Shown: positions 39,396 to 54,500 of the stretch, piece after piece
Position numbering within the stretch: position 1 is the first letter of the stretch
How the letters are laid out: each line of letters begins with the position of its first letter
From: an uncultured Candidatus Saccharibacteria bacterium
Lineage (GTDB): Bacteria; Patescibacteriota; Minisyncoccia; Phycocordibacterales; UBA918
Direction of reading: 5' to 3'
Length of the DNA: 64,000 nt
NCBI GenBank assembly: GCA_964552045.1
Contig: CAZKFF010000001.1
Location: 64,120-128,119, forward strand
Notes under the pieces: generated by a model
The model's database searches: none
Seen by the model: the letters and a program-made list of their open reading frames with translations, nothing else
Told to the model about the DNA's origin: nothing
Made by a program: the position numbers and the translations under genes

Positions 39396-39465
39396 AGTGC
39401 GAATACCATATCACAATTTGGGGAAAGCTCAATGCTCGTTTAGCCCCTGCTGCTATACTGTCTGT

Positions 39466-40473
39466 ATGTCTTTAGCATATGATTTTGTAGCGATCGGAGA
39501 CCTGGTCATTGATGCATTTATTGAGCTTTCCAAGGATGAAGCCGACGTATCCATCGACCTCGATACCGGCAGGAAGACCCTCCTGATGAAATTCGGGGAG
39601 AAGATACCGTATGAGAACGTGACGGTAGTGAACGCCGTCGGAAATTCCTCGAACGCCTCGGTCTCAGCACGGCGACTCGGACTGCAATCCGCCCTTATTT
39701 CAAGCGTGGGGCATGACCGGTACGGCAATGACTGCCTGCAAACGCTCCGCGAAGAAGGCGTCCATACCGATTACGTGAAGGTCCATGAGGGCAAATCCAC
39801 CAATTATCACTACGTTCTCCGTTATGGGCCTGAACGGACGATCCTTATAAAGCACGAGAAATTTCCCTACCTGCTGCCCAATTTCGAAAAGCCGCCGCGG
39901 TACATTTATTTCTCTTCCATCGGCGAGCACGGACTGCCTCACCATTTTGAGATAGCGAAGTTTGTGCGCGAACACCCGGAATCAAAGCTCGTATTCCAAC
40001 CGGGCACGTTCCAGATCAAGCTCGGAGCTGAAAAGCTGCAGGAAGTGTACGAGCAGACCGAGATATTCTTCTGCAACAAGGAAGAGGCGCAGACCATACT
40101 GAAGACAACACAGCAGCACATTCCCACGCTGCTGCGTGACTTCAAGAAACTCGGGCCGAAGCTTCCGGTCATCACCGACGGTCCCGGTGGTGCGTATGTG
40201 GTTGATGAAAATGACCAGGCGTGGCATATGCCTATGTACCCCGATCCTGCGGATCCGGTTGACCGAACTGGCGCAGGCGACGCATTCTCCTCAACCTTCA
40301 CTGCCGCAATAGCACTCGGGTTATCGCCAAAGGAGGCGCTCGCATGGGGACCGATCAATTCCATGTCGGTGGTCCAATACATTGGCGCACGAAAAGGGCT
40401 TCTGACAAAAGACCAGCTGTTGCAGTACCTGCAAAATGCGCCTGCGACATACACAGCCAAAGAGATTGACTAG
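39466..40473 (+). CDS. PfkB-family carbohydrate/nucleoside kinase (ribokinase-like)
   Basis: C-terminal anion-hole motif DRTGAGDAFSSTF. N-terminal GG-like region. ATG at 39466; the ORF track begins at 39169 without a start. Confidence 0.75.
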   Translation: MSLAYDFVAIGDLVIDAFIELSKDEADVSIDLDTGRKTLLMKFGEKIPYENVTVVNAVGNSSNASVSARRLGLQSALISSVGHDRYGNDCLQTLREEGVHTDYVKVHEGKSTNYHYVLRYGPERTILIKHEKFPYLLPNFEKPPRYIYFSSIGEHGLPHHFEIAKFVREHPESKLVFQPGTFQIKLGAEKLQEVYEQTEIFFCNKEEAQTILKTTQQHIPTLLRDFKKLGPKLPVITDGPGGAYVVDENDQAWHMPMYPDPADPVDRTGAGDAFSSTFTAAIALGLSPKEALAWGPINSMSVVQYIGARKGLLTKDQLLQYLQNAPATYTAKEID

Positions 40474-40487
40474 ACTGCATACATAAA

Positions 40488-40522
40488 GGAAAAGGCCGAA
40501 AGCTTCGCTTTCGGCCTTTTCC
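40488..40522. terminator. bidirectional terminator hairpin
   Basis: aaaaggccgaaagc-ttc-gctttcggcctttt is a perfect palindrome between convergent genes. Confidence 0.6.
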
Positions 40523-40524
40523 TT

Positions 40525-41514
40525 TTAGCGCTCTACGGCGGCCCTAACCGCTGCAATAATGGAATCTGTATCCATGCCGTAATGAGCAATGAGTTCTTCC
40601 GGATCGCCTGATTGCCCGAACTGATCCTCAACACCGACCCTGATGATCCGCTTGGGGGCATGCGCACTGTAGTACTCCGCAATAGCCCCGCCCAATCCTC
40701 CGGCAACCTGATGCTCTTCGACAGTCACAATAAGATCATGAGCTTCCCCGAATTGGTCGAGCGCCGCCGTATCGAGCGGTTTGACCGTCGGCATGTGGAG
40801 CAGAGAGGCGCCGATTCCCTCCTCATTGAGTCGCTGCGCGGCAGACAATGCATTGTGCGCCAAAATCCCTGTGCTGATTATCCCGACTGTTTTTTCGTGA
40901 GCAGGGTTCTTATGGAAAAAAGTGTATGCTTTGCCGATCTCAAAGGGCGAGGACTCAGTTGTCACCACAGGAGATTTATCCCGGGCGATGCGAATATACA
41001 CCGGCCCGTCGTACTCCGCAGCGGCAAGCACCGCCTTCTGTGCCTCATGCACATCGCACGGGGCTATGACCACCATGTTCGGCATTACACGCATGAGTGC
41101 GATGTCCTCTATCGCCTGATGTGTTGCTCCGTCCGGTCCCACAGAGACGCCGGCATGAGCGCCGATGATCTTCACATTGCGGTTGTTGTAAGCAATGGTC
41201 GTTCGCACCTGTTCCCAGCTTCGTCCGGGAGAGAACATCGCATATGAAGCGATAAACGGTATCTTCCCGCAGGCAGCCATGCCCGAAGCTACCGAAGCCA
41301 TGTTCTGCTCGGCGACACCCACCTGCACAAACCGCTCAGGGAACGCCTCTGCAAACAGATTGGTGCGCGTCGATTCTGTGAGATCAGCGCATAAGGCGAC
41401 AACGCGCGCATCCTTTTCTGCCGCCTCTTTCAGACCTGTGCCGTATCCGTCCCGGTTCGGTATTTTTTCTACCTGATCGGTGCATATTCTTTTGTCGAGA
41501 TGATCTGCAAACAT
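40525..41514 (-). CDS. transketolase, C-terminal subunit (split transketolase)
   Basis: Pyrimidine-binding and C-terminal domains. Directly follows the N-terminal subunit gene with a 2-nt gap. Confidence 0.85.
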   Translation of the reverse strand: MFADHLDKRICTDQVEKIPNRDGYGTGLKEAAEKDARVVALCADLTESTRTNLFAEAFPERFVQVGVAEQNMASVASGMAACGKIPFIASYAMFSPGRSWEQVRTTIAYNNRNVKIIGAHAGVSVGPDGATHQAIEDIALMRVMPNMVVIAPCDVHEAQKAVLAAAEYDGPVYIRIARDKSPVVTTESSPFEIGKAYTFFHKNPAHEKTVGIISTGILAHNALSAAQRLNEEGIGASLLHMPTVKPLDTAALDQFGEAHDLIVTVEEHQVAGGLGGAIAEYYSAHAPKRIIRVGVEDQFGQSGDPEELIAHYGMDTDSIIAAVRAAVER

Positions 41515-41516
41515 AC

Positions 41517-42410
41517 TTATGAGTCTGATGGGATTATGGTCCCTCCGAGCGTGCGCAGCCGCTGGAGCGCTATTTTCGCCTGCTCACTTCGCGGCACCCG
41601 GTCTTCCGGTCCCTTGCCCGGAGGATTACCGTGCCATTTGAAGTCGCGCTCGAACACATCCACGCCTTTTGAAGGGATGGTGTTGGCGATGATAACCGAT
41701 GGCTGGGAATAGATCGCCTGTGCTTTTCCGATGGCGTCATTGACCGCACGGATATTGTGTCCGTCCACTTCCTGCACATCGAAATTGAATGATTCAAATT
41801 TTTCCCGCAGCGGCTCGAGCGGCATTACGTCCTTGGTAAAACCGTCTATCTGAATGCCGTTGCGGTCGATGATGACCACGAGATTATGAAGCCCCTCCTT
41901 CCCCGCAAGCATAGCCGCTTCCCATATCTGCCCTTCGTTGAGTTCGCCGTCCCCGCAGATGCAATAGATGAACCGGGAGGTATACGGATTGTCCATGCGC
42001 TGCGCAATGGCCATGCCCACCGCCTGCGAGAGGCCCGAGCCTAAAGGTCCGGAACTCGTTTCGAGGCCCGGAAGCGACTCCCGATGCGGATGCCCCTGCA
42101 GACGCGAACCGAATTTGCGCAGTGTCAGCAGCTCCTCAATGGGAAAATAGCCCGCGTGCGCCATGGTCGCATACAGTACCGGACAGATGTGTCCTGCTGA
42201 AAGTACGAGACGGTCGCGGTCCTCCCAGTCCGGGTTCTTTGGGTCATGCTGCATGACGCTGAAATACAAAAGCGTGAAGATATCTGCCATATCAAGCGGA
42301 CCGGCAGTATGGCCGCTGCCGGCCGCAACCAGCATTTCTATTACGCTCTGACGTATCTCGTTCGCTTTCAATTCGAGCGCTTCTATCTCGGAAGTGGAAA
42401 GATAATGCAT
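41517..42410 (-). CDS. transketolase, N-terminal (TPP-binding) subunit
   Basis: GHTAGPLDMADIFTLLYF and GDGELNEGQIWEAAMLAG are the TPP-binding motifs of the transketolase N-terminal section. Confidence 0.85.
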   Translation of the reverse strand: MHYLSTSEIEALELKANEIRQSVIEMLVAAGSGHTAGPLDMADIFTLLYFSVMQHDPKNPDWEDRDRLVLSAGHICPVLYATMAHAGYFPIEELLTLRKFGSRLQGHPHRESLPGLETSSGPLGSGLSQAVGMAIAQRMDNPYTSRFIYCICGDGELNEGQIWEAAMLAGKEGLHNLVVIIDRNGIQIDGFTKDVMPLEPLREKFESFNFDVQEVDGHNIRAVNDAIGKAQAIYSQPSVIIANTIPSKGVDVFERDFKWHGNPPGKGPEDRVPRSEQAKIALQRLRTLGGTIIPSDS

Positions 42411-42430
42411 AACTACCCTTTAGTATATCC

Positions 42431-43576
42431 TTAGGAGAGACCAATGAGGCGTGCGAGCTGTTTATAGGCGGCGGCAGGATCCTTTGCGCGTGCGATCGCT
42501 GAACCGGGAGCAAAACGATTTACTCCCGCGTCGCGCAGACGCACGATAGTGTCCGCATTGACCGCGCCGTCGACTGCGATCTCCAGAGAAGGATGCGCTG
42601 TACGGAGCGCGGACACAGTCGCAATAGTCCGTTCGTCGAACGGCTCCCCTTGGACGCCGACATGCGCAATACCCATCACCTGCACAAAGTCTATCTCCGG
42701 GATATATGGCTCAAGCTCCGCATGCGGAATGTCATTGGTGACCGCAATACCGATTGAGTACCGATGCTCGCGCGCATGCGCGATGCATGCGGTGTATTCC
42801 TCTGTGCTGCCGAAGTGTATGACCACGCGCTTGACTCCCATGGATGCGCACAGGTCTAAAAAACGTTCGGGGTGCACGCACATACAGTCGATCTCAAGAT
42901 CAAATTGTTTTGTATAGCGCTGCAGCTTACCCAATTCTGCCTCGGCATTGGTCACCAGAAATGGCCACGAAGTGTGCGGCACGAATACTCCATCGACGAT
43001 ATCTATCTGGACCGCGTCTGCCGTTCCCGCAAGGGCATCAAGCAGTGTGGTAATTTCCTCAAAGGATGAGGCAGGAAGCGACGGCGCAAGAGCCAGGGAT
43101 GTATTCGGCGCGTGCACGCTGCTCAGCGTCTCGAGTTCCTCTATGCGGCGGTCATATTTCTCTTTTGGCTCATGCGCAGAAGCGAGCCAGAGCGCCACCG
43201 CCTTCTTGGCGGTCTGCTGGTCGAGGAATCGTGCGCCGAGCGACAGCACATTTGCGTCATTGTGCTGCCGTGAAAGCTTCACGATCTCATCACTTCCGCC
43301 GTAATAGACCGCAGCGCGGACGTCATGGAACCGGTTGGCCATCATGGCCTCCCCCTGCCCTGAGCCGCCGAGAATGATCGCCTTGGTCTGAAGCGGCCGC
43401 GCACTTACTTCCCTCGCAGCTTTCGCTATAAAGTCAGTGAAGTCATCCTCCGCATCGTACGCGTATGCGCCGCAGTCAACAACCTCATACCCGAGCTCAT
43501 CTCTGACATAGTCGATGAGCTTGTCTTTGAGTTCGAATCCGGCATGGTCAGAAGCAAAATAAATTGTATCCTCCAT
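42431..43576 (-). CDS. fusion protein: ribose-5-phosphate isomerase B (N-terminal) + ribulose-phosphate 3-epimerase (C-terminal)
   Basis: N-terminus IYFASDHAGFELKDKLIDYVRDELGYEVVDCG...ILGGSGQGEAMMANR is RpiB/LacAB-like. C-terminus IDIVDGVFVPHTSWP...VMGIAHVGVQGEPF is an Rpe TIM barrel. Confidence 0.75.
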   Translation of the reverse strand: MEDTIYFASDHAGFELKDKLIDYVRDELGYEVVDCGAYAYDAEDDFTDFIAKAAREVSARPLQTKAIILGGSGQGEAMMANRFHDVRAAVYYGGSDEIVKLSRQHNDANVLSLGARFLDQQTAKKAVALWLASAHEPKEKYDRRIEELETLSSVHAPNTSLALAPSLPASSFEEITTLLDALAGTADAVQIDIVDGVFVPHTSWPFLVTNAEAELGKLQRYTKQFDLEIDCMCVHPERFLDLCASMGVKRVVIHFGSTEEYTACIAHAREHRYSIGIAVTNDIPHAELEPYIPEIDFVQVMGIAHVGVQGEPFDERTIATVSALRTAHPSLEIAVDGAVNADTIVRLRDAGVNRFAPGSAIARAKDPAAAYKQLARLIGLS

Positions 43577-43585
43577 AGAAAAAGA

Positions 43586-44626
43586 TCACATGCCCGTTTT
43601 TGCATTGAAGAATCGTGAGACTGCAGCCACGTGAGTGACAAGCGTGTGGGTATAGCTTGACTCGTTGTCGTACCACGCAAGTACCTTCACGAGGTTGCCG
43701 TCAACCACGCGGGTCATGGCCAGGTCAGCAATAGCGCCATATCGTGCGCCGATGATATCGGAAGACACGAGCGGCTCGTCCGTCACCGCAAAAAGATCCT
43801 TCCAGTTATCGGTTACAGCGGCTTTTTTGAGCGCTTCATTGACCTCTTCAACACTGGTATTGCGGGACGCGATGAAGGTGACGTCCACGATCGAACCGAC
43901 CGCCACTGGAACGCGGATGGCAATGCCATCAAACTTATTGGACAGGTCCGTGTGCGCAAGCGTTGTTGCTTTTGCAGCGCCGGTAGATGTCGGCACGATA
44001 TTCATAGCAGCTGCCCGTCCTGCCCGGAGATCCTTCTTGTTCGGACCGTCAACAAGCGACTGGGACGCGGTATAAGCATGGGTGGTGTTGAGTATTGCCT
44101 TTTCAATACCGATCGCTTCCTTGAGGATTGCGATAAGCGGGCTGGTTGCATTGGTGGTGCAGGAGGCATTGGAGCTTATGGTGCAGGTTGCGAGCATGGC
44201 GTCATTGACGCCCATGAGCACAGTAGCCCCGGTTACGCCCGCAGCAGACGGGTCGTCCTTTACCGGGCCAGAGATCACCACGCGCTTCGCGCCGGCATCG
44301 AGATGGGCCTTGGAGCCTTCATAGCTGGTGAAAAATCCGGTTGATTCGACCACCACATCAATGCCCATATCATTCCATGGCAACGCCTTCGGATCTTTTT
44401 CCTGCAGGAAGGTGATCTTCTTGCCGTCGATCAAAAGCGCTCCTTCCTTTACTTCAATATTCATCTGCGCATGGCCGTAGACGGTATCGTACTTCAAAAG
44501 ATATGCCAGGCTTTCGAGCGAGCCGAGATCATTGATGGCCACTATCTCAAAATCGGGATGACCGAACGCCATTCTGAAGAACGTGCGGCCGATGCGACCA
44601 AAACCGTTGATTGCTACTTTCGCCAT
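43586..44626 (-). CDS. gap: glyceraldehyde-3-phosphate dehydrogenase
   Basis: MAKVAINGFGRIGR Rossmann start. Active-site block ASCTTNATSPLIAIL. Confidence 0.9.
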   Translation of the reverse strand: MAKVAINGFGRIGRTFFRMAFGHPDFEIVAINDLGSLESLAYLLKYDTVYGHAQMNIEVKEGALLIDGKKITFLQEKDPKALPWNDMGIDVVVESTGFFTSYEGSKAHLDAGAKRVVISGPVKDDPSAAGVTGATVLMGVNDAMLATCTISSNASCTTNATSPLIAILKEAIGIEKAILNTTHAYTASQSLVDGPNKKDLRAGRAAAMNIVPTSTGAAKATTLAHTDLSNKFDGIAIRVPVAVGSIVDVTFIASRNTSVEEVNEALKKAAVTDNWKDLFAVTDEPLVSSDIIGARYGAIADLAMTRVVDGNLVKVLAWYDNESSYTHTLVTHVAAVSRFFNAKTGM

Positions 44627-44706
44627 GGATCATTGAAAATTATATTGCTAACTGCATATAACTATACGCCATCATCCTTCCTTCATACAGGGGTATTATC
44701 CTCACG

Positions 44707-46407
44707 CTACTTCCGCTTTGCGAGCACTGCGAGGATGAAAACCACGCAACACAGCGCGATGCACGCCAGGAAGAACGGGTGCACGAAGAACAAGGGCAGG
44801 CCGGAGATGACCGCAGCCCCGGTAGTACTGCTCTCGATGAAGACAAAAGATGCACAGAGCAAACCGGTACAGAACAGCACGATACACAGTACTTTCAGGG
44901 CAGCAACGGCTGTGTGACGAGTCATCTTTTTACGCACGATCACATACACAAGCAATAACAGAAGCCCGAGGGCAATCGCCCAAAAGAAAGGCCCTGTAGT
45001 GTAGAAAATCCGCTCCGTACTTCCCGACAAGCCTGTGGGCGATAATGGTGCGCCTGCAAGGAAACGGTACGAGCCTTCAACCTGCTGCATCTTCTGAGTC
45101 TTGTGGTCAAACACGGTAACGACAACCGGATAGACTCCGGCTGTGCGAAGCGGTGCTATATGTGCTTCATAGTCTGTCTTGTCCTTGTTGATGCGCAGGA
45201 GGAACGAGAACGTGAGATTCTGATCCACCGGATGCGTGAACGTCACGCGGACGGTCTTCAGATGTTCCGGGAGCTTTTCATATGCTATGCGCAGAAGAAA
45301 CGGTGCATTCGCATCAAGCGTGCCGCCCTGAACCTGTGCGCCATTCTGTATGACTTCGATATCGCTAAACGACAGCGGGAATGCCGGATAATGCTCGGTG
45401 TCACCGCTGGTTGCAATGGCCTGTTGCGCTGCGGCAACCACCGCGCCTGAGGAAATGTTGCCCTGCGTGTCGTACGCAAATACCGTATAGTACTGCGCGT
45501 CATATTTTGAAAGTGCCCGGCTGTCTGAAAAGACTTCGGCATCTCCCTGATACGCGATGAACCCGTCATACGGATCATCCGGATAGAACAAGTGGCTCCG
45601 CACAATGCGCACAAAGGCGAAATCGGGATCGCTTGGGTTCTCCCATGAAAGCTCCACATCATTGCCAGACAGAGCCGCGCGCAAACCGGAGACATTCGAC
45701 GGCGGCGTTATGTCGGGTGCTTCAAGTGTTTTGAATTCTCCTGATGAAAGCGCGTGCCTGCGCCCGTCGCGGTCAAAGCCGAGCAGCTGATAAGAATAGG
45801 TCGTACCGGGCTCCAGATCGGTGATTACAGTCGAGTGGGTATGCTTGAAGAGCTCGTTTGAGACGAACCCGAGTTCATATGCTGCGGTCCTGCCCCAGCG
45901 CAGTTCAAACTGTGCATAGCCTCTTGTCTGCCATTCCACCTGTACGGTTCGGATATCCGGGATGACATCAAAATGGATCAGGTACAGATCGCTTCCACCG
46001 CCTCCATCGTCAGACACAGGCGCAGGTATGTCCAACGTAGTGGTGGAAACTGCCGCTGACGATGACGAGAAGTTTTCGGATGTATCGAAAGCGGTCACAA
46101 AATAGCTGTACAAGGTGTCCGCAGTCAGGCCGGTATCCGCATAGGTGGTCAAAGATGTGGTTGCAATCTGGATTGCATCACGGAAGACCTGGTATCCGCC
46201 AAGCACGGTATCGTCAGTTGCGGCATTCCATGAAAGGTCGATCTGCGAAGAAGCAACCGGCGTTGCGCTTAGTCCTGTCGGAGTCGTGGGCGGATTGGCG
46301 TCCCCCACTATACGCATGCGTACATTGAACTCGTCCGTCTGTGCCTGCGCTGCAAAAACGCAGACGAAGAGAAATACAGCCACATGTATGCAGAGTCTGG
46401 AGATCAT
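44707..46407 (-). CDS. surface protein with fibronectin-type-III-like domains and C-terminal membrane anchor(s)
   Basis: Signal peptide MISRLCIHVAVFLFVCVFAAQA. FN3-like PPTTPTGLSATPVASSQIDLSWNAATDD...YSYFVTAFD. C-terminal FYTTG, then TM, then RKK, then further TM segments. Start overlaps the upstream gene stop. Confidence 0.6.
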   Translation of the reverse strand: MISRLCIHVAVFLFVCVFAAQAQTDEFNVRMRIVGDANPPTTPTGLSATPVASSQIDLSWNAATDDTVLGGYQVFRDAIQIATTSLTTYADTGLTADTLYSYFVTAFDTSENFSSSSAAVSTTTLDIPAPVSDDGGGGSDLYLIHFDVIPDIRTVQVEWQTRGYAQFELRWGRTAAYELGFVSNELFKHTHSTVITDLEPGTTYSYQLLGFDRDGRRHALSSGEFKTLEAPDITPPSNVSGLRAALSGNDVELSWENPSDPDFAFVRIVRSHLFYPDDPYDGFIAYQGDAEVFSDSRALSKYDAQYYTVFAYDTQGNISSGAVVAAAQQAIATSGDTEHYPAFPLSFSDIEVIQNGAQVQGGTLDANAPFLLRIAYEKLPEHLKTVRVTFTHPVDQNLTFSFLLRINKDKTDYEAHIAPLRTAGVYPVVVTVFDHKTQKMQQVEGSYRFLAGAPLSPTGLSGSTERIFYTTGPFFWAIALGLLLLLVYVIVRKKMTRHTAVAALKVLCIVLFCTGLLCASFVFIESSTTGAAVISGLPLFFVHPFFLACIALCCVVFILAVLAKRK

Positions 46408-47165
46408 AAGGGCAGTGCGGTTACTGTTGTTGTGGCAACATACGAGCCGGGCGCCTGGATGACCGACCCCCCCACCCCAACACGGAAGCGGATCGATGTC
46501 GTCGCGCCTGTGGGATGATTGGCGCTTCCGTGAGACGCAATTATTTCAGGTGCGGTAGAAAGACCGTCCCAGCATGCAAATGGCGTTTCTCCGGAGCCGG
46601 TATTGCAGGACGACCCATTGTCCTTAAAGCGCTGCACAACGTCAGCGCCTTCGGGAGTGTAGCCCAAATGCGCGTCAGCTGCGCCAGTTTCGAACGAGAA
46701 GTCCGGATCGCCCTGCGGTGCATAATCTGCGATCGCATCGGGTCCTTTCTGCATAGCCGGACTGTCTGATGCGGCAATGGAAAGCGCATAGCCGGAAGGA
46801 CTGTCGGTGATGACCGTAACAGTGGTCGATCCGTTCGCTATGCCGCCTGACACACCCGGAATCGACGGAGAGAGCGCAATATCCGATGACGCGCTGAGCG
46901 CGATGTATACCTCCTGCATCTGCTGATATCCCGCCTTCAATGCGTAGTTCGTACTCGTGGACACACCGCTTGCAAGTTCTCCCGCAGTGGATTCCAAGAC
47001 ATAATTGGTTGAAGTGGAAAGCCCGCCACTGAAGTTGATGCTGTCGCTCTGGATCTGAAAGTTACTGCTCTCCATCACCTGCGCGCCGGCACAATGAAGG
47101 CTGGCTACGACCAAAAGTGTAGCGATACTTGCTTGAGATAATGGCGAGAATAATTCTCTCCACAT
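46404..47165 (-). CDS. secreted beta-rich protein, paralog A
   Basis: Signal peptide. Shares the blocks DNGSSCNTGSGETPFACW and ATTSIRFRV with the 48278..48964 gene. Confidence 0.55.
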   Translation of the reverse strand: MWRELFSPLSQASIATLLVVASLHCAGAQVMESSNFQIQSDSINFSGGLSTSTNYVLESTAGELASGVSTSTNYALKAGYQQMQEVYIALSASSDIALSPSIPGVSGGIANGSTTVTVITDSPSGYALSIAASDSPAMQKGPDAIADYAPQGDPDFSFETGAADAHLGYTPEGADVVQRFKDNGSSCNTGSGETPFACWDGLSTAPEIIASHGSANHPTGATTSIRFRVGVGGSVIQAPGSYVATTTVTALPL

Positions 47166-47173
47166 GGCACAGG

Positions 47174-48262
47174 TTACTTAGACTTTCGTTTAAACTCGAA
47201 ATTTCGTGCAAAGAAGCGAATTATGAAGAAGACGAGGAAGAGTCCGAGGAATACCGGCAATACGATCTTCCACGGAAGCACCCAGAAGGTTATGGTCTGC
47301 GTATCGATAATGTCATCATACCCGCGGTTGATGTGTGCAGTTGCTGTGTACTTGCCGATGAGCAGCTCACGGTTCCAGGAGATCTCCCGCGAACGCAGCG
47401 ATTTCGGCAATGCAAACCACGGATCAAGCTCAACGAAGCCGACCTCCTCATTGAAGAGGTTCGTAATCCTGATCTCTCCGTACGGATTCAGGTGGAGGTC
47501 TCCTTTGTTCTCGTACAGTATCTGAAAATTGATCGGGCCTTCAGTGAAGAACTGCTGATCGGGTACCGTAGCAAAACTGTGCAACTCTCCTGCTATCTCC
47601 GTTTCTCCAGGAATGGTCAAGAAAAAAAGCGTTCCTACACGGGAAATGATAGCTGAAGACGGTGAGGCACCATTCGTTTCAGCAATGTCGGCCTTCTTCG
47701 AAACGGTTGTAACAAGCACACTGCCGTAGCGTCCGCCCGGTTCAGCATTTGGAGGGACTGCAACAGTTACTGGAATACGAGCCCGTTGATTGTGTTTAAG
47801 CGTCAGCTTCTTGGTCGGAAGCTGTATATAGTCTTTGAGCGTATAGGGACCCCTGTCATCACCGAGAAGCACGACAGGTGTCCGAGGATCATCGGAGCCG
47901 GTTGCGTCTTCAACAAACAGTTCAAACTCGCGTTCCTCGCCTGTTCTGTTTGAGACGATGATCTCAACAGTCTTAGATGAGCCGGGAGCGACCGTGAGTT
48001 CAGTCTTGCCCGGTCCGACCACAAAGTCACCAGGAACCTCGTCCGACGCAGAGGTGAGCATTTCGGTTGAGTATCCGGCCTGGGCAGGAGTTTGAACGGT
48101 TCCGGCCTCCTGGGTAGGATCCCCTTCCATAGCGTCTGTGCCAGTTGCTGTTTCCTGTGCAGAAGCCGGAAGGCCGCCGAGCAGCATGGCTGCAAACAAA
48201 ACAACAACTACCGCACACACAGAGGCGGTAGTTGCTGTCTTAAAGGAGTGACCATTCATCAT
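47174..48262 (-). CDS. cell-surface protein with N-terminal signal peptide and C-terminal TM anchor + basic tail
   Basis: Signal ...VCAVVVVLFAAMLLGGLPASA. C-terminal LPVFLGLFLVFFIIRFFARNFEFKRKSK. Architecture resembles DUF916/DUF3324-type surface proteins (inference). Confidence 0.55.
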   Translation of the reverse strand: MMNGHSFKTATTASVCAVVVVLFAAMLLGGLPASAQETATGTDAMEGDPTQEAGTVQTPAQAGYSTEMLTSASDEVPGDFVVGPGKTELTVAPGSSKTVEIIVSNRTGEEREFELFVEDATGSDDPRTPVVLLGDDRGPYTLKDYIQLPTKKLTLKHNQRARIPVTVAVPPNAEPGGRYGSVLVTTVSKKADIAETNGASPSSAIISRVGTLFFLTIPGETEIAGELHSFATVPDQQFFTEGPINFQILYENKGDLHLNPYGEIRITNLFNEEVGFVELDPWFALPKSLRSREISWNRELLIGKYTATAHINRGYDDIIDTQTITFWVLPWKIVLPVFLGLFLVFFIIRFFARNFEFKRKSK

Positions 48263-48277
48263 TAGAATGATTTTATG

Positions 48278-48964
48278 CTAGTTAGTTGTGGCGGTCAACG
48301 TAGCAGTTGCTGTGTAAAATCCGGTTGAAACTGCAGGACTTGGATTGGAAGGCACCAGAACGCGGAAGCCGATTGTGGTTGTTGCTCCTGAAAGCGGTGT
48401 TGCGGTACTTCGACTAATGATCGTTTCTGCTGCGTCATCAGGATCGAGCCAACATGTGTTTGCCGTATCCCCGGAACCAGTATTACATGCAGAGCCATTG
48501 TCTGCGAACGAAGGATCAAGATCAGAAGATGATGAGGCTGCGACCGTATAACCAAACTGTGCATACGTCTCAGCGCCGAAACCATAATCCGGTACGCCGA
48601 CAGCTGTTGGATTGTAGTTTGAGATATATCCTCCGCCGCCATCCTTTGTCATGGCAGTCGTGCTTGAAAATGCGATGGTCATATTATAGCCGGCTGTATT
48701 GTTGGTATTCACGCGGACCGTATACGAACCGTCTGATTGACCTCCAGTGAGACCAGCAATGTTTGGAGACATAACCACATCAGTTGATGTTGCGATGAAG
48801 GCGATCTCAGCAGTGATCTCCTGGGTCACTTCAAATGTATCGGTTGCCTGAGCCAGTCCTACCTGCGGCTCAAGCATGAAGAATGAAGCAAGCGCCAACA
48901 GCGACGCGAGCGTTGCGGCAACCAGTGCGCCAAAGGTTGAATGCCTGATAAGTGTAAGGGTCAT
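48278..48964 (-). CDS. secreted beta-rich protein, paralog B
   Basis: Signal peptide. Conserved blocks DNGSACNTGSGDTANTCW and ATTTIGFRV are shared with paralog A. Confidence 0.55.
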   Translation of the reverse strand: MTLTLIRHSTFGALVAATLASLLALASFFMLEPQVGLAQATDTFEVTQEITAEIAFIATSTDVVMSPNIAGLTGGQSDGSYTVRVNTNNTAGYNMTIAFSSTTAMTKDGGGGYISNYNPTAVGVPDYGFGAETYAQFGYTVAASSSSDLDPSFADNGSACNTGSGDTANTCWLDPDDAAETIISRSTATPLSGATTTIGFRVLVPSNPSPAVSTGFYTATATLTATTN

Positions 48965-49065
48965 ACGTTGTTGTGTGTTTATGATTAACTTCCTTTAATT
49001 ATAGGGTGGATTTGCTCTCTCTTCCCTCTCTTTTTGGCTCTTCTGTGGATTACTTTGCAGGCAAT

Positions 49066-49099
49066 AAATAAGGACACTTTATAAAGTGTCCTTATTTTG
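49066..49099. terminator. palindromic terminator hairpin
   Basis: aataaggacacttTATAaagtgtccttatt is a perfect palindrome. T-runs on both sides. Lies downstream of the 49120..50355 gene. Confidence 0.55.
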
Positions 49100-49119
49100 T
49101 GGCCCAATCCTACTACGGA

Positions 49120-50355
49120 TTATGTCTCCTGCGAGGTCGGCAAGACCTTGACCGTTGCCTCAGCCGATCGCGTTGTGGAGCCAAGTGTGCATTCGAGCGT
49201 GTACGTTGATTCCGAAGTGATGCCGACCACTGTTCCCTCTCCTTTAACCTCTGTTACAGACATGCCAGGGCCTTTCACGGTACAATTTTCCGCATTGCCT
49301 CCGTCCCAAGTGACCGTCACCTCACCTCCATAACGGATAAGTCCAGGCACAGCACTGATAGATATGTTGGACATCGTCAATGGATTATCTACCGCACAAG
49401 ACAAGTAGGTATATGCGCTGCTGCCGGAAAGTGTACCGTCGGTACAGGTACGGTTTATTGAGCTGCATGTTTCGCCGTCCGGAACCAGATTTTCATCGTA
49501 CAGTTTGCGGGTCGAACCATCGGCTATAGTGACGCCATTGACCGAACAATCTCTTTTGACCGTCGGGGTCGGCGACGAAGGCTGCGCTGGCGTCTGCGTT
49601 GCTGGTGTCGGGGTTGTCTTTGGAGTTGTTTTCGGCGTCGGTGCCGGGTCAATGGTACATGAGGAGTACTTGAACTTGTTCTTTCCGGAAAGATCGCCAT
49701 CGTCACATGTGCGTTTTATGAATTCGCATGTCTTTCCATAGTCAACATTCCGGTCCTTGTAGAATTTCCTCGATTTCCCGTCCTTTACCGTGACGCCATC
49801 AAGTTTGCAATCCTTCGGTTTTTCGCACACGAGCTCAGTGGTGCTCCAGGAGAAGAAGAATAATTGGTGCTTTACTGTCTTCTGTTCGCACCAGCTCTCC
49901 TTATAACAGGTTCCTTGGTAGAGGACGTATCCATTTTTACATTGCGGCGTCGGTGTGCGGGGTGTGGGATTATTCGGCGTCGGATCATCATTATTCAAAC
50001 CACAGGGGTCGTTTGGACCAGAACAGGCACTCGGTGTGCCACCATATGAGGCCTCTGAGGGACTCTGCGAGTATGAACCCTGACGGTAATATGAACTCTG
50101 CGAATACCCACTGGGAAGTGTCGCAGATATGGGCGAGGGAACGCCGAAACCTGTATCTGTTCCGGTTAAACCACCCGCATTGCATGACGGACAGCCCGAA
50201 TCAGAGAGTGCACCCGATGGATTGCCCGCCGTGCCACTATTGACCAGTGCCCGCTGATCCTCGTCGGTAAGCCGCGCGTTAGCAATTATGGGCATCGCGT
50301 ATAGCAATACGAGGGCGAAGCAAATGTAAACGTACGGACGTAAATATTTATTCAT
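49120..50355 (-). CDS. secreted Cys-rich protein with tandem Cys-bounded domains, Pro/Thr linkers and a short Tyr-rich S-Y-Y-x-Q segment
   Basis: Signal peptide MNKYLRPYVYICFALVLLYAMPIIANA. SGYSQSSYYRQGSYSQS. Two homologous modules C..DGVT..DG..RK.Y.....G.TC....RTC.DG.LSG. Linker TPKTTPKTTPTPATQTPAQP. C-terminal beta-domain ending C-T-L-G. Confidence 0.55.
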   Translation of the reverse strand: MNKYLRPYVYICFALVLLYAMPIIANARLTDEDQRALVNSGTAGNPSGALSDSGCPSCNAGGLTGTDTGFGVPSPISATLPSGYSQSSYYRQGSYSQSPSEASYGGTPSACSGPNDPCGLNNDDPTPNNPTPRTPTPQCKNGYVLYQGTCYKESWCEQKTVKHQLFFFSWSTTELVCEKPKDCKLDGVTVKDGKSRKFYKDRNVDYGKTCEFIKRTCDDGDLSGKNKFKYSSCTIDPAPTPKTTPKTTPTPATQTPAQPSSPTPTVKRDCSVNGVTIADGSTRKLYDENLVPDGETCSSINRTCTDGTLSGSSAYTYLSCAVDNPLTMSNISISAVPGLIRYGGEVTVTWDGGNAENCTVKGPGMSVTEVKGEGTVVGITSESTYTLECTLGSTTRSAEATVKVLPTSQET

Positions 50356-50366
50356 ATGATCAGGGG

Positions 50367-51440
50367 TTATTCGATCCAGTCACTTACAATGATACTCGAC
50401 TGCGGGAATGCATTGAGCGGTGTCACGGTAGTCACCACTCCGGAAAGCAAGTTCAAAAGTGTCAGTCTCCTATTTTCTGCTTCCGCTCCTGATGCTGGTG
50501 CCCAATCGACCTGTTCGAACGCAAGCCATTGGCTGTCCGGAGAAAAGACCGGCCAGAAAGCCTGTATATCATGAACCTCGCTTTCTCCCAGCGTGAACGG
50601 AGCCCATGAGGTGATGGCAGATACCGATACTGTCTGCACGAATGCATCGGTCATAGCCAGCATTTTCCCATCCGGAGATATATCGAACATGCGTTCAGTC
50701 GAAACCAGATTTTCATCCAAAACTACAGCGAGTCTGTCCTGTTTGTTTGTCACGGAGTACGCATGCACACCGTCATTCGCCAGATAAACAATCTGCGAAC
50801 CATCCGGAGAGAAGCGCGCATTATACCCGTGCGCTATAAATTGCGGTTCTTGTACATCCTGCACCAGATATATGCTCCAAGTGCTCGGCAAGTAGTACGC
50901 TTTTGTGTCTGTCGATTTCTCGGGCGGAACTTCGAAAGTGTATGACGCGCCTGTTGGTGCCTGCCGGACATTCCAGAAAGGTCTCTGTGCTGTTGTGGAC
51001 GCATACAAGACCTCATCACCGAGAGTGTCTTTAAGGGTACGGAACACAGCTACTTCGGGCGTGGCGCTCTTTACGAGAAAACCTGACCCAAGTGCGGTCT
51101 GTTTGTCGTTTGACACACTTGGCATGAAGTAATTGAAGAGTGAACGTTCGAGAGTTGACTTACCCAGGTCGAAGACAGCGAATATCGTTCCACTCGCATG
51201 TGGTTCCTGCAGGTTAAGCAGTATCTGACCCGACGGTGGCTCCATAGACTCTTCTGGAAGATCTGTATCCTCATCCATTTCAGAATACGTGTTCGTGAGT
51301 ACTGGCCCGGCAGGATTCCAGACGATCTTGATACCGATCACAATAGAAAGCAGGAGCAGAAACAACAAGAAGCATACGAGAACTATACCCAAGATGTTGC
51401 GTGTGGGCTCTTGCGGCTCTCGTGTATAGAGAAGGCTCAT
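50367..51440 (-). CDS. membrane-anchored PD40/TolB-like beta-propeller repeat protein
   Basis: TM ILGIVLVCFLLFLLLLSIVIGI. Repeated F/I-SPDG-x-x-L/I blades (FSPDGSQIVYL, ISPDGKMLAM, FSPDSQWLAF). Confidence 0.6.
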   Translation of the reverse strand: MSLLYTREPQEPTRNILGIVLVCFLLFLLLLSIVIGIKIVWNPAGPVLTNTYSEMDEDTDLPEESMEPPSGQILLNLQEPHASGTIFAVFDLGKSTLERSLFNYFMPSVSNDKQTALGSGFLVKSATPEVAVFRTLKDTLGDEVLYASTTAQRPFWNVRQAPTGASYTFEVPPEKSTDTKAYYLPSTWSIYLVQDVQEPQFIAHGYNARFSPDGSQIVYLANDGVHAYSVTNKQDRLAVVLDENLVSTERMFDISPDGKMLAMTDAFVQTVSVSAITSWAPFTLGESEVHDIQAFWPVFSPDSQWLAFEQVDWAPASGAEAENRRLTLLNLLSGVVTTVTPLNAFPQSSIIVSDWIE

Positions 51441-51599
51441 AAAGTATGTAGCGCACCTACAGACAGCACAATCAATGATAAGCATCGCTGTGGGTATTCT
51501 GCATCTGCGCTTAAACTCTCCCTATAGTATAAGCCACATCCCTAACTCATGCGCTGTAAAAGGAAGGGCGGATGTGGATTACTCCCAAAGTGAGTGGGG

Positions 51600-54500
51600 C
51601 TATATTTCGCCGCCGCCGCCGCCACCGCCGCCGCCTGCCTGGGTATACGGCTTTACCTGAATGGCATCGACCTTGACCGTATTCTGATCCGGCTGGTCAA
51701 TGACACGGACGAAGAAGTTGCCGCCTGAGAGGTCACTTGGACTCCAGCTGCGGCCCCAGGTATCGGACGCACCGCCGAGCGTATAGACTGCGTCGCTTCC
51801 CGTGAGCACGGATGTTGCCTTTGTCGCCGTCACACTTTCGTCGCCATTCCAGGAAAGTGCCACCTGAATCGTTCCCGCCCCGGTTGAACCGGACGCTTCA
51901 AGCTTCACTTCGATACCGGTCACCGTATTCCCTGCCGGCACATTGAAGCCGAAGACACTGTACGACTGACGAAGGTCCGCCGATGCAGCCGTTGCGTAGA
52001 CGTCGTCGGAGGTAAGCGCATTGCTGCCGTTTGTCCACTCATTGTAGAGTTCTCCGGTTGCGGTCGGCGCTTTGAAGCCGGGTTCGTTGCCAATCTGCTC
52101 TCCATTATCCTCTTCCCCTACTCCGCCGCCGCCGTTGTTGCCGCCGCCGCCGATGTCACCATCACCTTCTGGTGCATCGTCTCCCACTTCAGCGCTGAAG
52201 AGACTGCCGCCGCCCTTATTGCCGCCGCGGATATGCTGCACTGAGGTCACACCTCCGAGCGGGACAACAACTCCTTCAGTCGTCGCGCCCGTGCCGGTAA
52301 CACCGTTACGATTGAGGTCAATGGTCAGATACTCATTGGTATGTACGCCCGTGACATCTCCCGTAAGGACATAGTCTTTGGTCGTCGTTGCATCCCATGA
52401 TGTTGAGAATGTTATTGTCCCTGATTGTCCCGTGATGGCTAACACGCCAGTGCCGCCGATCTGGTTGTCAGAAGCGTCTGCCGTACCGTTGCTGTTATTG
52501 TCGCGGTAGAGCTTAAAGTCCCCAATATTACTGCTATCGATACGATGGATGCCGGAGAGTGTAAATACAGCTGACGTGATCGTTGCATTCTCTCCAACAG
52601 GTGCAAGATTAAAGGCAAACAATGGTTCGTCGCTCTTGTTCTGGTAGCTGAATGCATTGTCGATCTGACCAGCGGTGTGATCTGCAAGGTTTGCTGCACC
52701 ATAGATAGCCACAGTCTTATCATCATGAACGCCAGTAGCTGCCACAGGATCAAGTGTATAAGCGTTGATATCGTCACCCGTATAACCCATCACATAGAGC
52801 GTGGTACCGTCGTTGTTGAAGAGTGCCGCAGCAGGAGCAGATTCCTGTGCGGCGACCGAGAACGCGATCTCGTCGAAGGTCGCCGTTGAGATGTCGTACG
52901 GAGTGGAGAGCGTATAGGCATTGATGTCTTGTCCTGTTAAGCCCACAACATACAATACAGTACCGGTGTTGTTGAAGAATATATCAGAGGGGGCGTTTTC
53001 TTCTGAAAGGACCGAGAACGCGATCTCGTCGAAGGTCGCCGTTGAGATGTCGTACGGAGTGGAGAGCGTATAGGCATTGATCTCCCCACCAGATGCTTGC
53101 ACAACATACAGGACGGTACCGGTGTTGTTGAATTCCATATCATAGGGGAAGGATCCCTCTGCCGAAACCGAGAACGCGATCTCGTCGAAGGTCGCCGTTG
53201 AGATGTCATACGGAGTGGAGAGCGTATAGGTATTGATGTCGAGACCAGAAGTACCCATCACATAAAGAACGGTGCCGGTGTTATTGAAGAGCATTGAACG
53301 GGGGTTGATTTCCTGTGCGGCGACCGAGAGAGCGATCTCGTCGAAGGTGGCAGTTGAGATGTCATACGGAGTGGAGAGCGTATAGGCATTGATGTCATCA
53401 CCGGTAGAACCCATCACATAGAGCGTGGTACCGTTGTTGTTGAAGAGCATTGCACGAGGAGCGTCTTCTTGTGAAGAGACAGAAAGGGAGATTCCATTGA
53501 AGATGGCAGTTGAGACATCGTATGAACCTGACTCTTGATCAACAACAAACGACAGCGTCGATGTTGGCGCAGCAAGTGCGTTAAATTGTGTAAATGAAAG
53601 CCCCGAAATAGTGAGGGTATCCCCTCCTGAGAAGTCATTCGAGACGGGTACGACGAGTGTGGCACCGCTGTCCTCATACGAAACAGGATTAGAGACTTTG
53701 CCTGAGGCGGTTCCTCCAAAGACTGCAGTGGTATCGGTCGTATCCCACTTCATATTTGTCTTTGTAGTGTCAATGGTAATACGAAGGTCATTCGCTGCCG
53801 TAATCGTCGGGGTCTCGGCGTCGGTTATGGTAATGGCGGCAATAGACGTGGTCGCCTGGCCGTATCCAAAGATCTGGTTCGATGCTGAGGAAATCGTCCC
53901 CGCCCCGCCTCCACCTGCTGGCGCTGTGATGTCCCAGCAGTCGTTATTGCCGCTGTCGGTCGAGCTGGCTGCAGTGATGGTGCTTGCGCTGTCGCATGCG
54001 TTTGAGTCCATCACATCGACATACGTAACGGATATCTGGGTATCTGCATCGAGGCCCCACTGGGTTCCGTCCTGTGTTGAACGGAGTACGATCTCGTCAT
54101 TCTCTGCGCCGTCTATCTGTATAGAGGCGAAGGTTGAGGTCGCATCCGCAGGGAATTCCAGAGTAATACCGGGAGTGATCGCTACCAATTTTGCAGCCTC
54201 TACCGGATCAGTGAAGGTGGTGACCGGAACTCCGCCAGTATTGCCGGGCGAAGTCATCACGAGATCGGTACCAGATTGCGCTACCGCAACAAACGTACCG
54301 TTGCCGTAGGTCACTGACCGCCAAGAACTCGCTGCTCCTTCTTGTCGAGCAGTCCACGTGATTCCGTCAGGCGAGGTCATCACTTGATCAGTGCCACCGA
54401 GAGATACCGCAACAAACAGGCCGTTGCCGTAGGAAACGGAATGCCAGAAGGAAGCTTCTGTCGCCGAATGCGAGGTCCACGTGATGCCGTCCTCTGAGCT

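Follow-up and report, generated by a model that had tools for sequence, protein, structure and literature searches.

The window, by which we mean the whole 64-kb stretch of DNA that was analysed, comes from a reduced-genome bacterium of the Patescibacteria/CPR (Parcubacteria/Minisyncoccia type) and harbors five adjacent genes of sugar-phosphate metabolism. On the plus strand, pfkB (39466..40473) encodes a 335-residue, ribokinase-like kinase of the PfkB family (PF00294, E 1.5e-34, 120 bits). It converges on a minus-strand run comprising gap (43586..44626) for a predicted 346-residue type I glyceraldehyde-3-phosphate dehydrogenase (GAPDH; PF00044 and PF02800), an RpiB-Rpe fusion ORF of 381 residues (42431..43576), tktN (41517..42410) for the 297-residue N-terminal, thiamine diphosphate-binding subunit of a transketolase (PF00456, E 4e-60), and tktC (40525..41514) for the 329-residue C-terminal subunit with the pyrimidine-binding and C-terminal domains (PF02779, E 2e-42; PF02780, E 2e-24). 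The spacers within this run measure 9 nt (gap/fusion), 20 nt (fusion/tktN) and 2 nt (tktN/tktC). Both the adjacency and the identities of these genes had been put forward in a preliminary description of this DNA, and we recovered all five ORFs at the coordinates given there, each with matching Pfam domains.

Between the convergent stop codons lies a perfect inverted repeat, I1 (40485..40525, assigned to neither strand), with a 19-bp stem that is 100% complementary, a 3-nt loop, and A-rich and T-rich runs on the flanks of the stem. The minimum free energy of this hairpin is -31.1 kcal/mol on the plus strand (z = -8.9) and -31.6 kcal/mol on the minus strand (z = -7.8), and none of 200 shuffled sequences folded as well. 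I1 was absent from the output of a consensus terminator scan; we surmise that it is probably a bidirectional intrinsic terminator. The 80 nt upstream of gap (44627..44706, minus strand) contain, as read from the sequence, a TATAAT 14 nt before the ATG, which found no support in the consensus scan and marks this region as a possible promoter.

Based on their domains, tktN and tktC together make up a split transketolase, with PF00456, PF02779 and PF02780 all present. The two products match positions 11-268 (272 bits) and 312-625 (295 bits) of NF004559, and their scores add up to more than 488, the cut-off set for the undivided enzyme. The arrangement is that of the split transketolases of archaea and some bacteria, with N (thiamine diphosphate) and C (pyrimidine) subunits encoded by adjacent genes, here 2 nt apart, and no notable difference from these was seen. 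We also noticed that tktN is unusually conserved within its clade, belonging to a 37-member cluster at 90% identity or higher. As for the gap product, its TIGR01534 score was 364.8 against a cut-off of 367.2, with both Pfam domains far above their cut-offs and the SCTTN active-site motif present; we regard it in practice as a type I GAPDH.

The RpiB-Rpe fusion

The proposal that RpiB and Rpe form a single polypeptide was borne out, since one uninterrupted frame carries both PF02502 (residues 5-147, E 1e-35) and PF00834 (residues 163-361, E 1.3e-23). A hidden stop codon between the two halves, set beforehand as the refutation of this proposal, was looked for and none was found, the ORF being continuous under table 11. 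All on the minus strand, the ORF divides into an RpiB domain (residues 1-152; 43121..43576), a linker (~residues 153-162; 43091..43120) and an Rpe-like domain (residues 163-381 plus the stop codon; 42431..43090). In the AlphaFold2 model (mean pLDDT 91.9), there are two confident domains, with the linker (~150-160) alone being of low confidence (pLDDT ~56, falling below 50 at residues 154-156). The model thus depicts two folded domains joined by a disordered or flexible linker. Among fused homologues, the length of this linker varies, with inserts of 0-25 residues, and its counterpart in split relatives is the RpiB tail, a stop codon, the spacer and the start of Rpe.

Recognizing that rpiB and rpe are separate genes, 1-17 nt apart, in most related genomes, one may ask if two genes were merely joined by a frameshift introduced in sequencing or assembly, or by a misread stop codon. 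However, the identical 381-residue product is encoded on five contigs, each assembled independently from a separate sequencing run, and the ORF has no in-frame stop under table 11. Full-length fused homologues, 47-100% identical to the window protein, populate 58 clusters when grouped at 90% identity; at 50% identity, there are at least 34 fused clusters. Relatives that share the synteny are also fused, at 79% and 47% identity. With the same ORF in five assemblies and fused homologues in many clusters, we ruled out an artefact, the chance of which we consider to be next to nil.

The N-terminal half scored above the curated cut-offs of PF02502 (123.2 vs. 24.7) and TIGR00689 (111.9 vs. 88.3) and below the equivalog cut-offs of TIGR02133 (119 vs. 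168) and TIGR01120 (83 vs. 139). Its best solved match was RpiB of Mycobacterium tuberculosis (Rv2465c; 1USL, 2BES and 2VVO; E 3e-24, ~34% identity). The catalytic base of RpiB is Cys66 in the E. coli type and Glu75 in the M. tuberculosis type. In an alignment with 2VVO, the fusion kept D10, H11, the GGSGQGE stretch with E76, H105, N106, R116 and R144, which pair with D11, H12, E75, H102, N103, R113 and R141 of the M. tuberculosis enzyme; going by its structures, we take Glu75 to be catalytic and the Asp-His, His-Asn and Arg residues to be substrate-binding. The two proteins have in common the GGSG-x-GE motif with a Glu base as well as these binding residues, and differ in the fusion to Rpe and in Lys140, which stands here in place of Arg137. 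The active-site residues were invariant across 23 aligned fusions. The modelled domain (pLDDT ~90 or higher) matched 2BES in Foldseek with a target-normalised TM-score of 0.91 and an rmsd of 1.2 Å over 153 columns. As judged by sequence and model, the N-terminal half is an RpiB-family isomerase of the M. tuberculosis type, which would act on ribose 5-phosphate.

The C-terminal half passed PF00834 (83.8 bits vs. a cut-off of 21.1) and remained under the NCBIfam cut-offs of TIGR01163 (80.2 vs. 212.6) and NF004076 (95.7 vs. 165). Its modelled fold matched human RPE (3OVP/3OVQ) and Streptococcus pyogenes 2FLI with target-normalised TM-scores of 0.85-0.89 (Foldseek). With these enzymes it shares the TIM barrel, the two catalytic acid/base aspartates (Asp192 and Asp336), the phosphate-binding Gly-Ser pair (G358 and S359) and the position in the pathway; the Met cushion residues M232 and M301 are kept, and D192, D336, G358 and S359 are invariant. 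It differs from them, at ~28% identity, in the beta6 loop (VGxQG vs. PGFGGQ) and in the metal site. Rpe is normally an Fe2+/Zn2+ enzyme, and its His-Asp-His-Asp site (H35, D37, H70 and D175 in the human enzyme) is not intact here, the corresponding residues being Q190, D192, D230 and D336. Both canonical metal-ligand histidines (H35/H70 in human, H34/H67 in S. pyogenes) are accordingly replaced, by Gln190 and Asp230, a pattern widespread in the CPR. It occurs in all fused sequences, 59 of 59 when the window protein is counted with the 58 homologue clusters, and in 59 of 59 close split homologues. Because both histidines are missing, the metal dependence of the Rpe half, and conceivably its substrate, may differ from those of known Rpe. 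Across Patescibacteria, the slot between rpiB and tktN is occupied by His/His, His/Asp, Gln/His or Gln/Asp forms of Rpe, and by this slot the Rpe half is positionally orthologous to canonical rpe. The existence of His/Asp and Gln/His intermediates suggests that the ligands were replaced stepwise while function remained constant. The Gln/Asp swap could conceivably mark a Patescibacteria-wide move of Rpe to a harder metal (Mn2+/Mg2+) or to a metal-independent mechanism.

The PfkB-family kinase

By sequence, the kinase can be assigned only as far as the PfkB superfamily, with NxxE and GAGD motifs present. It fell below every NCBIfam equivalog cut-off, the best being that of ribokinase (TIGR02152, 95.4 bits vs. 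299.65, in two stretches), and scored 36-38 bits with the Pfk-2/1-phosphofructokinase branch (TIGR03168 and TIGR03828); among solved relatives, none matched better than E 1e-11. We take the ribose-contacting residues of E. coli RbsK to be N14, D16, G42, K43, N46, E143 and D255. Counterparts of Asp16, Gly42, Asn46 and D255 are kept; at Asn14 the kinase has a Val and at Lys43 an Asn, and around E143 the alignment is poor. Compared with RbsK, human RBKS (5BYC) and Methanocaldococcus jannaschii MJ0406 (2C49), the kinase shares the PfkB fold, both motifs and the sugar-binding Asp, Gly and Asn; unlike RbsK and the nucleoside kinases, to which it is 18-20% identical, it has a lid insertion of ~17 residues and lacks Asn14 and Lys43. 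The top Foldseek matches were ribokinases, obtained with a low-confidence model in which the substrate/lid half has a pLDDT below 50. The substrate is most likely of the ribofuranose type, i.e. ribose or a nucleoside. A separate feature of this protein is that it is far more conserved than the products of the neighbouring genes, with 75-87% identity in its top 120 homologue clusters.

Gene order and the fused state in Patescibacteria

To place the locus, we compared 80 rpiB-anchored loci from GTDB species genomes, for which all counts are lower bounds because many contigs end early. The collinear order gap-rpiB-rpe-tktN-tktC was seen in at least 43 of the 80; rpe lay directly downstream of rpiB in at least 50, tktN was present in at least 61 and gap in at least 56, and pfkB was found in the flank of at least 33, in convergent orientation in 23 of these and on the operon's own strand in 10. 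The adjacency seen in the window is no product of chance. The gap-rpiB-rpe-tktN-tktC order, like the proximity of pfkB, is conserved across the phylum, and this conservation, pfkB in both orientations included, supports a functional link among these genes.

The preliminary description had also called the fusion unusual. This holds insofar as rpiB and rpe are usually separate genes in Patescibacteria and the fused form is the minority state; it does not hold in the sense of a rarity, as evidenced by: 1) among the 150 best representatives of clusters at 50% identity, 34 are full-length fusions, with RpiB and Rpe subtypes that differ; and 2) close relatives alternate between the fused and the split form in a crude neighbour-joining tree of Rpe halves, the split relatives having identical flanking genes. 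In distant fusions, the RpiB half is of the Glu or the Cys type and the Rpe half shows any of four ligand patterns, and this mixing of types indicates that the fusion arose repeatedly.

Discussion

As a whole, the locus is very likely best explained as a conserved central-carbon operon of the CPR, which are very small and depend on hosts, with a merged rpiB-rpe gene, a convergent PfkB neighbour and a pathway that we infer from these genes. We postulate that, in this lineage, rpiB lost its stop codon together with the short spacer that separated it from rpe, and therefore both enzymes flanking ribulose 5-phosphate would be made as one polypeptide. Such a fusion is best seen as a state that two closely packed genes can enter and leave with ease, one that would guarantee 1:1 synthesis and co-localisation without bringing a new activity. 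Likewise, what the enzymes do, what the kinase acts on, which way the flux runs and whether the fusion brings a benefit are deduced from the genes. In the scheme that we propose, the fusion would interconvert ribose 5-phosphate, ribulose 5-phosphate and xylulose 5-phosphate; the split transketolase would trade carbon between pentose phosphates and glyceraldehyde 3-phosphate, fructose 6-phosphate, sedoheptulose 7-phosphate and erythrose 4-phosphate; GAPDH would pull glyceraldehyde 3-phosphate into lower glycolysis; and the kinase would phosphorylate a ribose- or nucleoside-type substrate, thereby feeding the pentose phosphate pool. Every enzyme of the module except the kinase is reversible, so that carbon could pass both ways through the module between the pentose pool and the pools of trioses and hexoses. 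In the 64 kb of the window, only a fraction of the whole genome, we found no genes for transaldolase, aldolase, phosphofructokinase, nucleoside phosphorylase or the oxidative branch, so that our scheme stays open at sedoheptulose 7-phosphate.

In the available portions of two accounts of the CPR (Jaffe et al. 2020, PMC7304191; Kadnikov et al. 2020, PMC7143001), these organisms are described as relying on glycolysis and a non-oxidative pentose phosphate shunt, mostly without phosphofructokinase and transaldolase. The genes reported there resemble ours (GAPDH, Rpi, Rpe, transketolase and a ribokinase-family kinase), as do the kind of organism and the question of the missing phosphofructokinase and transaldolase; they differ in that, in those portions, the genes are handled as presence or absence of a pathway. 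Missing biosynthesis has been proposed for this group in the same literature (PMC7304191, PMC7143001, PMC6389311), and so has ribose salvage (PMC6389311). A route from ribose or nucleoside salvage to glycolysis, as read from the genes in the preliminary description, is plausible for this module and echoes published CPR hypotheses. In the literature searched, including the available portions of PMC7304191 and PMC7143001, we found no mention of the conserved gene order or of the RpiB-Rpe fusion. The gene set of the operon is already known in the CPR, and the rpiB-rpe merger is a minor novelty, albeit real and recurrent.

The module might instead serve mainly as a phosphofructokinase bypass, in which transketolase takes fructose 6-phosphate to glyceraldehyde 3-phosphate, or as an anabolic route to ribose 5-phosphate and PRPP from imported glycolytic intermediates. 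Reversibility of all enzymes but the kinase and the position of gap at the head of the operon are in keeping with a role other than mainly ribose or nucleoside catabolism, as is the CPR literature, where, in the portions available, the shunt has been proposed and phosphofructokinase is nearly always absent (PMC7304191, PMC7143001). However, the conserved ribokinase-like neighbour fits an input of free ribose or nucleoside better, leaving such a role a tenable but somewhat doubtful idea; it is compatible with the conserved operon that we favor because the same enzymes serve both directions. A more specific proposal assigns to PfkB the sugar-phosphate kinase that the CPR seem to be missing, either a 6-phosphofructokinase or a sedoheptulose-7-phosphate kinase that would do the work of transaldolase jointly with an aldolase. 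If true, a PfkB kinase acting on fructose 6-phosphate or sedoheptulose 7-phosphate would close the pathway in CPR devoid of phosphofructokinase and transaldolase. According to the available portion of PMC7304191, most CPR lack both enzymes, and the alternative kinases looked for, as described there, were ROK-family and ADP-dependent ones and not PfkB types. The strong conservation of the kinase across its top 120 clusters, its linkage to transketolase in both orientations, the loss of the Asn14 and Lys43 ribose contacts and the enlarged lid are consistent with this assignment. Yet its best profiles and folds are those of ribokinases and nucleoside kinases (95 bits for TIGR02152 vs. 36-38 for TIGR03168 and TIGR03828, with ribokinases topping the Foldseek matches of the low-confidence model), and the sugar-binding Asp16, Gly42 and Asn46 are kept; we consider it unlikely.

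As for the fusion itself, the Rpe half might have diverged to another reaction of the ribulose-phosphate-binding barrels, or become impaired, in which case the protein would be no true isomerase-epimerase. Gln190 and Asp230 in place of both metal-ligand histidines and the scores below the NCBIfam Rpe cut-offs point in this direction, but the acid/base aspartates, M232 and M301, the Gly-Ser pair and the overall fold are all kept, the gene occupies the same slot as canonical His/His forms in other Patescibacteria, and strong purifying selection acts on the family, in which many alignment columns are invariant. We therefore regard divergence of this kind as quite improbable and retain the isomerase-epimerase assignment. 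The metal switch or metal independence of Rpe and a pathway-closing role of PfkB are linked possibilities, to which we would give little weight.

A parallel to the fusion is the HxlA-HxlB fusion (NF041755), for which the match was marginal at 15.8 bits. The two belong to other families and have another domain order; the resemblance is one of analogy, with no family membership. In both, a ribulose-phosphate-binding barrel enzyme is joined to the sugar-phosphate isomerase of an adjacent step around ribulose 5-phosphate, NF041755 being a fused 3-hexulose-6-phosphate synthase/6-phospho-3-hexuloisomerase comparable to the archaeal Hps-Phi fusions.

Gene layout and flanking signals

The module begins on the plus strand with a PfkB gene (39466-40473), a 335-residue ORF starting at the ATG at 39466 and matching Pfam PfkB, which converges on a minus-strand run of four genes. 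From its upstream end, this run comprises gap (43586-44626; 346 aa; Pfam Gp_dh_N and Gp_dh_C), the RpiB-Rpe fusion (42431-43576), tktN (41517-42410; 297 aa; Transketolase_N) and tktC (40525-41514; 329 aa; Transket_pyr and Transketolase_C), with spacers of 9, 20 and 2 nt. The fusion is one chain of 381 aa, with LacAB_rpiB at residues 5-147 and Ribul_P_3_epim at residues 163-361. NCBIfam assignments of the five genes match Pfam at the family level, and the ORF table and Pfam bear out the genes, coordinates and adjacency given in the preliminary description. Antisense ORFs within these genes (up to 211 aa) had no Pfam match and were treated as spurious.

The convergent stop codons of pfkB and tktC lie 51 nt apart, and inside this gap we spotted by eye an inverted repeat (40485-40525) whose 19-bp arms pair perfectly around a 3-nt loop, subsequently confirmed by folding and a repeat search. 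With a folding energy of about -31 kcal/mol on either strand and z-scores of -8 to -9, this hairpin is probably a bidirectional terminator. A consensus promoter and terminator scan returned nothing useful and missed the hairpin, the search for direct repeats in the region gave short chance pairs only, and the single Rfam hit in the window was a tRNA-Thr outside the module. At the outer ends, -10-like hexamers precede both ATGs, TATACT by 6 nt at pfkB (39454-39465) and TATAAT by 14 nt at gap (44627-44650), with no obvious Shine-Dalgarno sequence at either start. The closeness of these hexamers to the ATG, together with the missing Shine-Dalgarno sequences, suggests that the pfkB and gap mRNAs may be leaderless or near-leaderless.

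The RpiB-Rpe fusion is real

The preliminary description had recognized that a hidden stop codon might separate the RpiB and Rpe halves. None is present, as the frame is open from ATG to stop, and the Pfam scan that it proposed places both LacAB_rpiB and Ribul_P_3_epim in one ORF. The identical protein occurs on five contigs, independently assembled from five sequencing runs, and a word-indexed search of 5.8 billion proteins recovered full-length fused homologues in 58 clusters (47-100% identity). When these are aligned, conservation extends over both halves and the junction varies, with 0-25 residues inserted. The AlphaFold2 model of the fusion averages pLDDT 91.9 and loses confidence only at about residues 150-160. 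In Foldseek, Rpe from human and S. pyogenes matches the Rpe half at a target-normalised TM-score of 0.85-0.89, and M. tuberculosis RpiB matches the RpiB half at 0.91 (rmsd 1.2 Å); no solved chain spans both halves. An assembly or frameshift artefact, which would have joined two genes that are separate in the organism, is ruled out by the open frame, the five assemblies and the existence of fused syntenic relatives, and we conclude that the fusion is real.

Origin and recurrence of the fusion

Split close relatives, in which rpiB and rpe are separate genes, share extended synteny with the window, running through surface-protein genes, gap, rpiB, rpe, tktN, tktC, pfkB, L25, a lytic transglycosylase and L31. 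Their RpiB terminates 12-14 residues past the RRI motif, and 1-17 nt separate it from rpe; loss of this stop codon and spacer would yield the linker of the fusion seen here. One syntenic relative also carries a fusion, with only 47% identity in RpiB-Rpe, and a neighbour-joining tree of Rpe halves places three split-gene clades amid fused ones. As far as so crude a tree can tell, these genes have evidently switched between the fused and the split state on more than one occasion.

When 1.84 billion representatives were searched exhaustively with phmmer, 34 of the best 150 hits proved to be full-length fusions (28-59% identity), comprising one close fused homologue already in the fusion alignment (P0049) and 33 distant ones. 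Those with names belong to Patescibacteria, among them candidate division WWE3; their PGAP annotation reads only 'RpiB/LacA/LacB family sugar-phosphate isomerase'. A single origin, from which all these fusions would descend, is ruled out by the distant set, as the RpiB motif is of the Glu-base kind (GGSGQGE) in 10 of the 33 and of the Cys-base kind (CxxGxG) in 23, and the set spans four Rpe ligand patterns; the interleaving of fused and split genes among the syntenic close relatives also counters it. Since the distant fusions differ in both RpiB base type and Rpe ligand pattern, the sequences indicate that the architecture arose repeatedly. The preliminary description had called the fusion unusual, which overstated its rarity given this recurrence, although the two genes are indeed separate in all 80 rpiB-anchored GTDB loci. 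Our literature search found no description of an RpiB-Rpe fusion. We thus regard it as a recurrent, so far undescribed form of known enzymes, which public databases list under a name that covers one domain only.

An altered metal site in the Rpe half

The catalytic metal of Rpe is held by two histidines and two aspartates, namely H34, D36, H67 and D176 in the S. pyogenes enzyme (2FLI) and H35, D37, H70 and D175 in the human one (3OVP); the assignment of ligand roles draws on PDB alignments. In the Rpe half (42431-43090) the aligned ligands are Q190, D192, D230 and D336, with Gln190 and Asp230 replacing both canonical histidines. This Gln/Asp pattern is found in 59/59 fused sequences (58 clusters plus the protein of the window) and in 59/59 close split homologues. 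Among the 66 rpe genes of the GTDB loci, the pattern was Q-D-D-D in 30, H-D-H-D in 21 (7 of these in loci that do not resemble Patescibacteria in gene order and organism label), Q-D-H-D in 8 and H-D-D-D in 7. Because all four patterns occur in the same operon slot, with intermediate states present as in a mosaic, we infer that the reaction of the Rpe half may be unchanged, with a metal site altered by harder ligands.

Predicted working of the fusion

The Rpe half retains the barrel fold as well as the acid/base aspartates D192 and D336 and the Gly-Ser pair that binds phosphate. Aligned with M. tuberculosis RpiB, the RpiB half keeps all the residues known to be important in that enzyme, namely D10/H11, E76 in GGSGQGE, H105/N106, R116 and R144. 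The fusion would thus interconvert ribose-5-P, ribulose-5-P and xylulose-5-P, supplying both substrates of the split transketolase encoded by the adjoining genes, and the GAPDH whose gene heads the operon would consume the glyceraldehyde-3-P made. Fusing two enzymes that share ribulose-5-P would ensure their equal synthesis and proximity, and substrate channelling is possible. RpiB active sites extend across a dimer and Rpe assembles into dimers or hexamers, so that the fusion may form a higher-order complex. As the fusion, transketolase and GAPDH steps are all reversible, flux could run in either direction, carrying pentoses into glycolysis, bypassing phosphofructokinase or serving ribose-5-P synthesis. 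The salvage route proposed in the preliminary description, from nucleoside sugars to glycolytic intermediates, is plausible.

The PfkB kinase

The kinase belongs to the PfkB superfamily; its NxxE and GAGD motifs are intact, and the Asp, Gly and Asn that bind the sugar are conserved. It falls under all NCBIfam equivalog cut-offs, the best being ribokinase (95 bits vs. 300), and a PDB sequence search gave no relative with a solved structure better than E 1e-11. We aligned it with Pfk-2 and with E. coli RbsK; compared with the latter, the ribose contacts Asn14 and Lys43 are replaced by Val and Asn, respectively, and the lid is enlarged by an insertion of ~17 aa. Its AlphaFold model has a pLDDT of 65, with the substrate half below 50 and hence unreliable exactly there, and the top Foldseek matches of this partly unreliable model, ribokinases and nucleoside kinases, share 18-20% identity with it. 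'Ribokinase-like' is a fair description, whereas a firm ribokinase label is not established.

The kinase has ~8000 relatives at E<=1e-10, and its top 120 clusters are 75-87% identical vs. 55-65% for RpiB-Rpe in the same genomes; it is far more conserved than its neighbours, yet no characterised kinase matches it closely. Conservation of TktN is similarly high, at least 90% identity in a 37-member cluster. In two loci of split relatives, a D-2-hydroxyacid dehydrogenase gene lies between pfkB and L25 (L091, 10285-11256; L092, 9803-10774); neither the window nor the other fused-type loci inspected carry this gene.

Conservation in Patescibacteria and significance

The closest loci and named homologues, from which we read the lineage, are MAGs of Paceibacteria, Parcubacteria, Kaiserbacteria, Minisyncoccia or 'Patescibacteria group'. 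In a synteny sample of 80 rpiB-anchored loci from GTDB species genomes, rpe was near rpiB in 66 (directly downstream in 50), tktN was present in 61, gap in 56, tktC in 55 and a PfkB gene in 33 (23 convergent, 10 co-directional), with the complete collinear order gap-rpiB-rpe-tktN-tktC in 43. These counts identify the module as a conserved Patescibacteria operon and no oddity of the window. Horizontal transfer is not indicated, as the GC content of the module (0.52-0.56) resembles the rest of the window and synteny is kept well past its borders.

Elsewhere the window encodes housekeeping proteins (RNase R, SMC, RNase III, DnaE, ThrRS, GyrB, PheST, EF-Ts, S2, a release factor, L25, L31 and L32), many unannotated ORFs, pilin-like and cell-surface proteins and one 3696-aa ORF, a gene content usual for a CPR (Patescibacteria) genome. 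This content and the nearest loci agree with the kind of organism that the first reading had deduced.

The module itself is already known, as published metabolic maps of CPR place these enzymes within glycolysis and a non-oxidative pentose phosphate shunt, with phosphofructokinase and transaldolase mostly absent and a 'ribokinase' drawn (PMC7304191, PMC7143001). Ribose salvage was also proposed earlier for CPR (PMC6389311); a literature search on Patescibacteria ribokinase with nucleoside use gave nothing relevant. Our findings on the module do not overturn current understanding. It is nonetheless the core energy-yielding carbon route of a huge uncultured bacterial radiation, and the conserved operon provides a concrete clonable unit for biochemistry. 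The recurrent RpiB-Rpe fusion is natural evidence of two activities working together and may serve as a ready-made bifunctional enzyme. More useful leads are the remodelled Rpe metal site, widespread in CPR, and the specificity of the highly conserved PfkB kinase.

Other features of the window

A second gene fusion (8863-9768, minus strand) is a 301-aa ORF joining NusB (residues 7-136) to a NUDIX hydrolase (residues 167-281). The giant 3696-aa ORF (51600-62690, minus strand) has beta-propeller-type matches to Lactonase, EPTP and DUF6242, and is followed by unannotated ORFs and ORFs matching fn3, WxL-interacting and PD40 (44707-51485). This block lies directly upstream of gap, an arrangement preserved even where a relative's RpiB-Rpe shares only 47% identity. 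PheS (29944-30669, minus strand) is merely 241 aa, the catalytic core alone. The L32 ORF (9856-10305, minus strand) is listed at 149 aa with its L32p domain at residues 60-108, pointing to an extended N terminus or else to an incorrectly assigned start.
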